From Candidatus Babelota bacterium (lineage in GTDB: Bacteria > Babelota > Babeliae > Babelales > UASB340), in contig WJIY01000047.1 in assembly GCA_014730005.1 (NCBI GenBank), forward strand, positions 1-61,952: a DNA stretch of 61,952 bases. Direction: 5' to 3'. Position 1 is the first letter of the stretch, and the number at the start of each line of letters is the position of its first letter. The position numbers and the translations under genes are program-made. Under the pieces are notes generated by a model that was not told the DNA's origin, ran no database searches, and worked only from the letters and a program-made list of their open reading frames with translations. This document shows positions 13,045-14,901 of this stretch, piece after piece.

Positions 13045-14901
13045 TTAATCTTGCCATTCTTCCTCATCTTCTTCTTCTTGAATCTCTTCCTCTTCTTCCG
13101 AAATAGATCCTCTCCTTTTTTCCATAGCTGCAGCTAATGATTCCATCAAACCGCGTTTTTCTTCCGGTGTAGATTTTTCTTTTTTAGCCTCTTCTTTTTC
13201 TCTTTGTGAAACAGGTTTTAATTTTTGTCCCGCTCTTATACTTTCAAGTAATGCCGCTCGACCCGAACTAGAGTCTCCATTTTTTTTCATTTCGGAAGTT
13301 TCTTGTTGCAATTGAGGAAGCGGAGGCGCTGGAGGAGGAGGTGGTGGTGGAATTACCTCATGTTTCTTTTCAGTTTCTTCTTCAACCTTGATTTCTTCCT
13401 CAATTCGTGGAGGTAATGGTGGCGGTGTCACATCCATACTTGGCGGTTTTGGCGATGGAGTTACAATACCTGGTGGTGAAACTTGTTCTTCTCCTGGTCT
13501 TGCTGGCAATGGAGGCGGTGTTTCTTCTTTTGGTTTTATAGGAATCTCTTCTTCTGGCCTTGGAGGTAAAGTTGGTAATGTAATCTTGTCGATTACTAAA
13601 GTTTCTTGATCTTTAACATGTTTTTGTAACTCTAAATATTGTTTAGGATTTTTAGACCAACCTTTTCTTGGAAGCCTAAGCCAACGATATTCATTATCTG
13701 GCTTACTTCTTACAGAAAAATTACCTATTGCTACTATTGATTGATCACTTATAACTCCACCAATCGGCAAACCTGAAATCTTATTTTTTAAAAATTTTTT
13801 ACCCATCTCGGTAAGTTTCTTTTTATCAATTTGTTTTAAATCAAATATATGCCATTGAAAAGACTCATCTTGTGCAGGAAAACTCCCCAACTTAACAACT
13901 TCCACTCCTTTTTTATTTCCTATTTTAATATAAGAAGAAGTTGTTGGATTATATAATATCACTACATTGCCCGAAAGTATTTCTTTATTACTATTTTTAT
14001 CTTTAGGATCAAGAAATACAAATCTGGATGAAGGTTGAGGTTGCTGTATTGTTCCCAAAAGACCTCCTTGGTAATTTATATAAGAAGGTTTTGCCTCTTC
14101 TTTCCAATATTTAAAATATAAATAAACAGGATCTTGATATTTTATTGGTTGACGAGATATTTCCTGAAGATTTTGCATTTCTTGTGTAGAGGGTTGTTCT
14201 TGACTTGAAGGCTTCCTAAACATGGATTTAAATTCAGCACCAATTTCAACAAACTCTGCTCCTTGATCTGCAGCCTCTTTGGCTGCCTCTTTAGCTATCT
14301 GTGCCTTTTCTCTGGTTTGTTGTCTTACCTTTTTCCATTTTTCTGGATCTATAGCCTCTTTAGCTGCCTCTTTAGCTATCTGTGCCTTTTCTCTGGCTTG
14401 TTGTTTTATCTCTTCCCATTTTTGTCGTTCTTTTGGCAATGAAGAAATTGATTGCTCCTCGCTTGGAGTTTGAACTATATCAAGTGTTGGCGATGTTGGT
14501 TGTGCTTGTTCTGTATTATCTGATGTTGGCGATGGTGTTTGTGCTTGTTCCTCATCATCTGGTGTTTGTGGTGCTACTGGTAAAGGCGTTGAATATAAAC
14601 GACCTGCTGGCATTTGTTTCTCATTTGGCCTTGGCCTTGGTGTTGGTGGTAAAGGCTTTGAATGTGAGCGCCATGTTTGTGCTTGTTCCTTAGGCGGTGT
14701 TGTCAACAGTGTTTCCTCTTCTGGTTTTGTAGGAGCCACTTCACCTATAAATGTCGAACTTGTTTCTATTTCATCCTCTAAATCTACCTGAGGTGAATTA
14801 TAATCGGTCATTATCTGTTCAGCTTTTGCAAAATAAAAATTAAAAATATAAGAAAAAAATAAAATAAAGATCAAATTTTTAAATAAAAATTTTTTATTCA
14901 T
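13045..14901 (-). CDS. Secreted WASP/RickA-like actin nucleation-promoting factor (Pro-rich + WH2-Central-Acidic)
   Basis: Signal peptide from ATG 14901; PPLPxR motifs; PPPPPPPAPPLP; WH2 GRAALLESIRAGQKLKPV; C helix GLMESLAAAMEKRR; acidic tail ending EDEEEWQD. Confidence 0.88.
   Translation of the reverse strand: MNKKFLFKNLIFILFFSYIFNFYFAKAEQIMTDYNSPQVDLEDEIETSSTFIGEVAPTKPEEETLLTTPPKEQAQTWRSHSKPLPPTPRPRPNEKQMPAGRLYSTPLPVAPQTPDDEEQAQTPSPTSDNTEQAQPTSPTLDIVQTPSEEQSISSLPKERQKWEEIKQQAREKAQIAKEAAKEAIDPEKWKKVRQQTREKAQIAKEAAKEAADQGAEFVEIGAEFKSMFRKPSSQEQPSTQEMQNLQEISRQPIKYQDPVYLYFKYWKEEAKPSYINYQGGLLGTIQQPQPSSRFVFLDPKDKNSNKEILSGNVVILYNPTTSSYIKIGNKKGVEVVKLGSFPAQDESFQWHIFDLKQIDKKKLTEMGKKFLKNKISGLPIGGVISDQSIVAIGNFSVRSKPDNEYRWLRLPRKGWSKNPKQYLELQKHVKDQETLVIDKITLPTLPPRPEEEIPIKPKEETPPPLPARPGEEQVSPPGIVTPSPKPPSMDVTPPPLPPRIEEEIKVEEETEKKHEVIPPPPPPPAPPLPQLQQETSEMKKNGDSSSGRAALLESIRAGQKLKPVSQREKEEAKKEKSTPEEKRGLMESLAAAMEKRRGSISEEEEEIQEEEDEEEWQD
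14266..14427. repeat. Intragenic tandem duplication, 81-bp period (27 aa)
   Basis: KW..(I/V)(K/R)QQ(A/T)REKAQIAKEAAKEA x2; DNA units at about 14273 and 14354 are nearly identical. Confidence 0.85.

Follow-up and report, generated by a model that had tools for sequence, protein, structure and literature searches.

A secreted WASP-type protein of a Babelota bacterium as a predicted activator of host Arp2/3, and the recurrence of its cassette across the phylum

Does a bacterium of the phylum Babelota (also called Dependentiae or TM6; order Babeliales) encode its own means of driving actin branching in its host? The question is raised by a gene in a stretch of 61,952 nucleotides (contig WJIY01000047.1, positions 1 to 61,952, assembly GCA_014730005.1; this whole stretch is hereafter the window), whose product, here called P0001, looks like an exported protein at its N-terminus and like WASP at its C-terminus. 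The latter region comprises a WH2 motif (V), a central or connector helix (C) and an acidic tail with a Trp (A), i.e., a VCA module, which is present in canonical order with canonical residues and is conserved in diverged homologs. On this sequence evidence, P0001 is probably an exported protein that mimics a class I nucleation-promoting factor (NPF) and would activate the Arp2/3 complex of the host.

The identity of the module is supported along its whole length. WH2 is the sole Pfam family recovered in P0001 at E<=10 (PF02205, 25.4 bits, E 1.1e-5, where the curated cut-off is 23.1), and in a six-frame scan of the 1.15-Mb genome the same motif scores 30.1 bits and is the only WH2 encountered. 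When the last 101 residues are compared by phmmer with the sequences in the PDB, N-WASP is the best match (3m3n_W, E 2.1e-7; 2vcp_D, 1.9e-5; 6uhc_H, 7.7e-5), followed by WAVE1. The last 75 residues are collinear with the VCA module of N-WASP, sharing hydrophobic positions, the KR(R) pair and the terminal Trp: the WH2 motif aligns to each of the three N-WASP copies in 3m3n_W, the C region aligns column for column with N-WASP GIVGALMEVMQKRSKAI in both 2vcp_D and 6uhc_H, and the acidic tail aligns to the N-WASP tail ending DDDEWED. In the 6uhc_H alignment, the WH2 motif is followed by GLMESLAAAMEKRRGSI opposite GIVGALMEVMQKRSKAI, and then by the terminal EEEWQD opposite DDEWED, with Trp616 (13054-13056) standing three residues from the C-terminal end of P0001. 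A helix is modelled in the C region at residues 579-594 by AlphaFold2 (AF2) with low confidence. P0001 has the three elements of the VCA module of class I NPFs, i.e., the WH2 motif, the C helix with basic residues and the acidic Trp tail; it lies outside the WASP/N-WASP family proper, since neither WH1/EVH1 (PF00568) nor GBD/CRIB (PF00786) is found in it by Pfam at E<=10. The first-pass annotation, made from the letters alone, had named a signal peptide, several PxLPxR motifs, a poly-Pro run and the three VCA elements in canonical order at the extreme C-terminus, and had noted that no GBD or autoinhibitory segment was evident. Each of these elements was located where it had been placed, the WH2 call passed the hidden Markov model search, the alignment of the last 75 or so residues to N-WASP held end to end, and the absence of a GBD could be extended to WH1.

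This tail belongs to a small family in which it is the most persistent part. A word-indexed search with P0001 returned one relative, P0002 (774 aa), and when the central domain (residues 225-445) was the query of an exhaustive HMMER search, 1.84 billion representatives yielded three proteins in all, namely P0001, P0002 and P0003 (897 aa), the identity to P0001 in this domain being 50% for P0002 (residues 200-444) and 47% for P0003. The three are collinear: a signal peptide, a low-complexity stretch, a helical region, the central domain, a Pro-rich region, poly-Pro, WH2, C helix and acidic tail, with one WH2 copy in P0001 and two or three in P0002 and P0003. A fourth member comes from another genus of the same taxonomic family (genome G163), where a 492-aa gene lies, as in the window, between the orthologous ATPase of the type II secretion system (T2SS) and a convergent dnaJ, and where the product ends LLQQIQQGKQLRPV...SSLEQSIIERRSQI...EEEEEWEEE. 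This ortholog is undetected by plain pairwise BLASTP with P0001; it shows 24% identity to it over 217 aa (E 4.8e-8 in a six-protein database), and hhalign aligns 238 central-domain columns of it with the family profile at a probability of 92% (E 6e-7). The tails end in EEWQD in P0001, EEWED in P0002, DEWDD in P0003 and EEEWEEE in the G163 ortholog, and all four share the C helix, RR pair and terminal Trp with about a dozen unrelated Babelota proteins, which is the conservation that engagement of Arp2/3 predicts. That the VCA module was kept while the rest of the protein drifted to the edge of detectability is the strongest argument for selection acting on the tail.

The slot in which the gene sits is itself variable. 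An ortholog of the T2SS ATPase (T2SSE) occurs in 12/12 genomes of the taxonomic family, and in the loci examined there (L105-L115) the space between it and dnaJ is empty in four genomes (G160, G159, G165, G166) and holds unrelated open reading frames (ORFs) of 189-715 aa, most with signal-peptide-like N-termini, in five (G162, G158, G167, G164, G168); the contig of G168 ends before dnaJ, and G161, which has only a paralogous ATPase, stands outside this count. With such patchy content, the VCA gene is an accessory one. The 308-aa ORF that lies beside P0001 in the slot of the window finds no match at E<=1e-3 among what the other family genomes carry there; it bears a signal peptide and could be a co-effector.

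How far does the module extend beyond this family? With P0001 as the query, there is one other match among 261 Babelota species genomes, and it covers residues 510-618 only. The Pfam WH2 model, in contrast, matches 32 of the 261 at E<=0.01 and 21 over its cut-off, and none of 14 control genomes over cut-off in the same scan. An alignment of ten Babelota VCA modules (A1), in which the L, I, G and L of WH2 are invariant and the C-region L, the RR and the tail W nearly so, was turned into a profile, which matches 46 of the 261 genomes (ten of them being the training genomes), with 19 matches in 18 genomes spanning nearly the whole model. The loci of 40 genomes were inspected under a strict rule that asks for the WH2 regular expression, then a C-like helix with a basic pair, then a Trp in acidic context: 12 carry a full VCA module, 22 are "VC only" and 6 "V only". 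By eye, G082, G002, G006 and G057 also qualify, having been missed for reasons of the regular expression; G049 and G109 combine a degenerate V with a good CA, in G137 the signal peptide leads straight into a CA that stands alone, and several Babelota proteins have tandem WH2 motifs and no acidic Trp. Most of the inspected carriers start with hydrophobic, signal-peptide-like N-termini; some have the module at the C-terminus, others (G152, G149, G143, G002, G006) directly behind the signal peptide. P0001 is like the other Babelota VCA proteins (e.g., ORFs in L003, L007, L018, L078, L081 and L074) in having such an N-terminus, a Pro-rich character and the WH2-C-acidic-Trp series; outside the module it is unrelated to them, and by BLASTP it matches them over residues 517-616 only. 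The survey of the phylum that the first-pass annotation had proposed has thus turned up many WH2 and VCA proteins with signal peptides, and its scope is wider than had first been stated. Among the individual carriers, G143:C3 (L074/L118) has a full VCA module after a signal peptide and poly-Pro, and then a second CA-like stretch (…GRRKSIGDEADEVEDDDWDD), and G233:C29 (L120) has two VCA-like modules in a single ORF.

Searched against 5.8 billion proteins, A1 gives 8 matches at E<=0.1, of which six, P0001 included, are of TM6/Dependentiae type. Three of these six are named "hypothetical protein" and three are nameless; "candidate division TM6 bacterium" and "Candidatus Dependentiae bacterium" appear as source labels. 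The other two of the eight are N-WASP-like proteins of a tunicate (56 and 53 bits), one with WH1 and PBD and the other with PBD, which, unlike P0001, carry PF00786. As a positive control, 23 of 251 genomes of the order that includes a Neoehrlichia record (Rickettsiales) match, including ORFs of 400-530 aa with WH2-C-acidic-Trp that resemble RickA and are presumed to be it. In the order around a Legionellaceae metagenome-assembled genome (MAG), 6 of 41 genomes have VCA-like modules, and the cassette is therefore distributed across several intracellular lineages. The loci of this order that were looked at (L097, L098, L101) include, e.g., a 1284-aa ORF with SELMKAIRVGKELKHV…LLSAMVNRTQGI…DDDDDDDEYDDDWG. 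On the negative side, there is no match in 251 genomes of a free-living order (around a Lentibacillus MAG) or in five assorted genomes.

The remainder of P0001 is assembled around the module as summarized in Table 1. Its ORF is uninterrupted on the minus strand over 13045-14940, and the probable start is the ATG at 14901, giving 618 aa (coding 13048-14901), because a Shine-Dalgarno-like GAAAGG lies 8-13 nt 5' of it and the homologs begin at the equivalent residue. By inspection, the N-terminus shows the n, h and c regions of a signal peptide with an AxA-type site, i.e., a Lys-rich MNKKFLFK, a 16-residue hydrophobic core NLIFILFFSYIFNFYF and a cleavage-like AKA/E; residues 3-33, which cover it, are modelled as a helix in a poor AF2 model, and equivalent hydrophobic N-termini are present in P0002, P0003 and the G163 ortholog. 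The low-complexity region that follows has a KPLPPTP motif ([RK]xxPxxP) at residue 82 and a 39-bp tandem repeat at 14485-14566. The two helical repeats, which like the 39-bp repeat are absent from the first-pass annotation, are visible both in the DNA (Tandem Repeats Finder, TRF: period 81, 2.0 copies, 89% matches at 14265-14423) and in modelled helices at residues 156-184 and 186-213. P0002 retains the poly-Pro run and one PPxPPR motif. A scan for promoters and terminators gave sites no commoner than in shuffled sequence (11 vs 9.2 and 1 vs 1.4, respectively).

Table 1. Coordinates of P0001, its parts and the genes that bound its slot (positions in the window; pLDDT, predicted local distance difference test)
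Feature	Position	Strand	Basis or remark
P0001, whole coding sequence	13045..14901	(-)	618 aa, stop at 13045-13047; ORF list, translation
Sec-type signal peptide, residues 1-27	14821..14901	(-)	by inspection
Low-complexity Pro/Glu/Gln/Thr-rich N-terminal region	14437..14820	(-)	pLDDT about 30, without secondary structure
Two tandem 27-residue helical repeats (KERQKWEEIKQQAREKAQIAKEAAKEA / IDPEKWKKVRQQTREKAQIAKEAAKEA)	14272..14433	(-)	TRF and AF2 helices
Central conserved globular domain, about residues 245-440	13582..14169	(-)	orphan family, possibly beta-trefoil
Proline-rich region	13309..13581	(-)	PxxPxR motifs and poly-Pro run
PTLPPR, residue 443	13558-13575	(-)	PxxPxR motif
PPLPAR, residue 463	13498-13515	(-)	PxxPxR motif
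PPLPPR, residue 494	13405-13422	(-)	PxxPxR motif
Poly-Pro run IPPPPPPPAPPLP, residues 517-529	13315-13353	(-)	sequence
WH2 (V) motif	13198..13269	(-)	Pfam PF02205
WH2 core GRAALLESIRAGQKLKPV, residues 547-564	13210-13263	(-)	sequence
C (central/connector) region GLMESLAAAMEKRRGSI, residues 584-600	13102..13152	(-)	alignment to N-WASP
Acidic (A) tail SEEEEEIQEEEDEEEWQD-stop, residues 601-618	13048..13101	(-)	13/18 residues D/E
dnaJ	11861..12988	(+)	Pfam DnaJ, DnaJ_C, CXXCXGXG; convergent downstream neighbour, slot boundary
308-aa signal-peptide protein without Pfam family	15322..16248	(-)	immediately upstream of P0001, same slot
Type II/IV secretion ATPase (T2SSE)	16328..17587	(-)	Pfam T2SSE, 435.6 bits; other slot boundary

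A tail so strikingly like that of N-WASP, down to the EWxD-stop, in a gene whose local GC (0.34) exceeds the window average, raises the suspicion of a eukaryotic fragment, misbinned or misassembled, or of a very recent and unexpressed transfer from a WASP-family gene of the host. The gene is nonetheless real, native and bacterial. The excess in GC falls in codon positions 1 and 2 and arises from the Pro, Glu and Ala content, whereas the GC at third codon positions (GC3) is 0.19 against 0.165+-0.022 in 44 other ORFs of the window (z = 1.2), and the synonymous codon preferences match. Tightly spaced bacterial genes flank P0001 on either side: the window is gene-dense (46 ORFs >=150 aa), dnaJ lies 56 nt away, and upstream are the 308-aa ORF, the T2SS or type IV pilus ATPase, a MiaB-like enzyme, an HD protein and YchF, the last with 72-78% identity to MAGs labelled "Candidatus Babeliales bacterium". 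The genome (1.15 Mb in 58 contigs, 94.6% complete) has an estimated contamination of 0%, and P0001 joins a bacterial signal peptide to a protein with neither WH1 nor GBD. Finally, a sister genus has a diverged ortholog between the same dnaJ and T2SSE neighbours, which excludes a misassembled fragment, so that contamination and misassembly, which the first-pass annotation had listed as a way for its proposal to fail, are effectively refuted by context, GC3 and synteny, and the chance of any eukaryotic origin of this kind is vanishingly small. An accident of composition deserves a little more weight, since P0001 is 12.5% Glu, 11.5% Pro and 10.4% Lys, the WH2, C and A elements are all short, and the fold of the central domain is not established; it could then be a low-complexity, charged and Pro-rich protein of the envelope or periplasm with no role at host actin. 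This is improbable in view of the four diverged homologs that all end in the three motifs, canonically ordered and spaced, of the empty result of A1 in the free-living order and of WH2 in the controls, and of the fact that outside the phylum A1 retrieves N-WASP-like proteins.

A closer competitor grants the binding and denies the activation: P0001 could bind actin or Arp2/3 as a monomer sequesterer, as a nucleator or elongator of the WH2 type, or as a CA decoy that blocks the NPFs of the host. The single WH2 of P0001 would suit such a role, and so would the frequency of WH2-bearing proteins with no complete module in the phylum (the "VC only" and "V only" genomes and the tandem WH2 proteins noted above). 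A lone WH2, however, is not expected to nucleate, a decoy would itself need to bind Arp2/3, and the C helix, RR and terminal Trp are retained in all four family members and the dozen or so unrelated carriers. There is a precedent in the Legionella effectors MavH and RavH, which are described, in the portions of the reports available, as WH2-type and independent of Arp2/3. Taken together, a non-activating binder is an unlikely explanation, albeit the most serious of the three rivals.

Several observations count against activation of host Arp2/3 by P0001 and keep it at the level of a probable reading. The main weakness is one of topology: a Sec signal alone carries a protein to the periplasm only, and if the bacterium resides inside a vacuole, the VCA module would not meet actin. 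The gene is also patchy: of the 10 further family loci examined, 9 have the slot empty or otherwise filled. In the module itself, the WH2 motif reads LKPV and not LKKV; the VCA segment alone (84 aa) retrieved only itself in a word-indexed search of 5.8 billion proteins, and BLASTP of P0001 against 229 ORFs, including those of the Rickettsiales loci L089-L096, found no Rickettsiales ORF at E<=0.01. The VCA signal is therefore one of motifs and profiles, in a protein with much E, K and P. AF2 modelling was poor in both cases, with a mean pLDDT of 37.0 for the whole protein and 36.4 for the central domain, only 3 sequences being available.

If P0001 does act as an Arp2/3 activator, a plausible course can be outlined. 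It would be exported by Sec through the inner membrane with cleavage of its signal peptide, would be released from the bacterium through the type II system or on vesicles, and would have to gain access to the host cytosol. The central domain and the two helical repeats might place or cluster it on a host or bacterial surface, and the repeats could also oligomerise it. A dimeric VCA is a stronger activator than a monomeric one. The PxxPxR motifs and the poly-Pro run, judging from their motif class, may recruit host SH3 adaptors and profilin-actin; the WH2 motif would deliver an actin monomer, and the C helix with the acidic Trp tail would bind and activate host Arp2/3, yielding branched actin. 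As P0001 lacks WH1 and GBD/CRIB, it is probably unregulated, being active with no need for release of the type effected by Cdc42 and phosphatidylinositol 4,5-bisphosphate (PIP2). The process served may be entry, vacuole remodelling or motility. An effector context is suggested by the signal peptide, the slot beside the T2SS ATPase, the occurrence of ankyrin and RING proteins in the window, and the status of the T2SS in Babela, where, in the accessible part of the Babela paper, it is the only secretion system detected. Likewise, the accessible part of the Chromulinavorax paper reports signal peptides on 44% of coding sequences, and an excerpt of PMC12172432 describes the phylum as strictly intracellular with heterotrophic protists as hosts.

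The central domain, in which the putative targeting function would reside, is an orphan. A profile search finds no Pfam family at E<=10 and no sequence relative in the PDB, and a search for homologs with alignment A2 gave 197 pattern matches in genome contigs and 593 in metagenome contigs, of which none was confirmed in either. All pointers from the ESM Atlas are to families of the beta-trefoil fold. For P0001 they are RicinB_lectin_2, Inhibitor_I66, AbfB and Fascin at 0.91-0.93 (recognition score 1761, below the 2300 bar), and RicinB_lectin_2, CDtoxinA and AbfB come up at 0.90-0.92 for the G163 ortholog, whose Atlas model (pLDDT 0.53) matches MIR domains at template modelling (TM) scores of 0.60-0.63 over 157-176 residues. 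That two diverged members point to one fold class is a fair lead, and on these models a beta-trefoil module for targeting or ligand binding has chances that are about evenly balanced. Two of the relatives add a further domain: J domains are genuine in P0002 (residues 26-88, 73 bits), where the domain comes directly after the signal peptide, and in P0003 (residues 302-360, 69 bits), where it is inserted within the central domain. A secreted J domain beside a VCA module suggests that host Hsp70 is recruited. In the pair formed by SDF2L1 and ERdj3, a MIR-domain protein partners a J protein, a parallel that may or may not hold for P0002 and P0003. A relation of these J domains to the adjacent dnaJ of the window was considered and set aside as coincidence, there being no evidence for it and no J domain in P0001.

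Set against known systems, P0001 mirrors the VCA region of WASP and N-WASP (PDB 6uhc, 2vcp, 3m3n) in having poly-Pro, WH2, C helix and acidic Trp tail in the same order at the C-terminus. It differs from N-WASP in lacking WH1/EVH1 and GBD/CRIB, in having one WH2 rather than two, in its Sec signal peptide and bacterial gene context, and in a central domain that is unrelated and for which no eukaryotic sequence relative was found. Listeria ActA, Burkholderia thailandensis BimA and baculovirus p78/83 likewise activate host Arp2/3 through WH2-like, C-like and acidic elements; these come from pathogens of animals or insects, with ActA and BimA anchored on the surface and p78/83 associated with the capsid. 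P0001, by comparison with these descriptions, has no predicted C-terminal anchor and comes from a phylum associated with protists. With Rickettsia RickA, which the consulted part of PMC9569871 describes as an NPF mimic activating Arp2/3, it shares the WH2-C-acidic-Trp module in an obligate intracellular bacterium. It comes, however, from another phylum, BLASTP at E<=0.01 shows no similarity to the Rickettsiales ORFs outside the VCA module, and these ORFs, where inspected, mostly lack a signal-peptide-like N-terminus and have the VCA module 47-107 residues from the end, whereas that of P0001 is terminal. Legionella MavH and RavH offer a parallel of another kind, being effectors of an amoeba-adapted intracellular bacterium that combine WH2-type motifs with a membrane-targeting module (phosphatidylinositol 3-phosphate-dependent, PI(3)P-dependent, actin effectors); going by the same partial sources, they work with no CA module, and a type IV system delivers them, whereas P0001 has a full CA and a Sec signal.

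Bacterial VCA mimicry as such is known already. The WASP mimics of a handful of animal pathogens, i.e., RickA, ActA and BimA, were central to working out how Arp2/3 is activated, and WASP mimicry by an intracellular parasite of protists would not astonish a specialist. What is new, as far as can be told, is the phylum, the architecture with a Sec signal, the orphan central domain, the J-domain relatives and the recurrence throughout the phylum. The first-pass annotation knew of no description in this lineage, and our search of the literature, with supplements and subscription journals lying outside it, agrees in finding no paper that joins Babelota, Dependentiae or TM6 with WH2, WASP or Arp2/3. 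The parts of the main text available for three genome papers on the phylum mention ankyrin proteins and signal peptides, and in these parts host actin, the cytoskeleton and WH2 are not mentioned. P0001 stands out as a clean, minimal and apparently unregulated predicted VCA protein in a phylum whose manipulation of the host is little known, and the cassette occurs in about one in six species genomes of that phylum on unrelated scaffolds. These proteins are testable candidates for the entry of Babelota into protist cells or the remodelling of those cells, and, as naturally diverged versions of the VCA sequence, they offer material for structure-function studies of Arp2/3 activation. They also raise the concrete question of the route by which substrates of Sec and the T2SS could reach the host cytosol.

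A wider proposal can be built on this recurrence: that Babelota deploy a toolkit of proteins exported by Sec and the T2SS, in which a WASP-type cassette, probably captured from a eukaryote, has been shuffled to either end of unrelated scaffolds, including a beta-trefoil-like domain, J domains and coiled coils. As a joint claim this is tentative, and we lean somewhat against its holding in full. Were it true, type II-secreted proteins of wall-less parasites would act as unregulated Arp2/3 activators in the protist cytosol, the J-domain relatives would couple actin assembly to host Hsp70, and this would be the broadest bacterial mimicry of Arp2/3 activation known, with a route to the cytosol that dispenses with type III, IV or VI injection. 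If the cassette is indeed derived from a host, it would be a case of a eukaryotic module of short linear motifs being captured and then shuffled inside bacteria.

Other parts of the window have features of their own. The protein of 334 aa at 22364-23368 (+) combines pentapeptide repeats (67.9 bits) with a C-terminal RING finger (zf-RING_2, 40 bits against a cut-off of 27.3), i.e., a predicted E3 ubiquitin-ligase domain of eukaryotic type, and is a candidate effector acting on host ubiquitin. At 2620-3201 (-) is a small ankyrin-repeat protein (Ank, 26.3 bits), which fits the ankyrin-rich effector repertoires reported in the accessible parts of the literature on the phylum. The stretch 32199-35905 (-) encodes five PQ-loop membrane proteins (209-226 aa), paralogous and in tandem, of which four have two PQ-loop stretches; such an array of eukaryote-style transporters is unusual for a 1.15-Mb genome. 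At 29205-32215 (-), the gene for a NurA-domain nuclease (83.9 bits) overlaps by 4 nt the end of a gene for an ABC-F-type double ATPase; NurA is usually paired with HerA, and the pairing seen here is unusual. A match to sequencing runs gave one DNA run, labelled hypersaline lake metagenome, with a 0.33 share of words, and no RNA run, which is uninformative on expression or habitat. Lastly, the 1408-aa protein at 23458-27684 (-) matches Pfam only at its N-terminus, with the PPDK_N ATP-binding domain (92.8 bits), and its other 950 or so residues are without an assignment.

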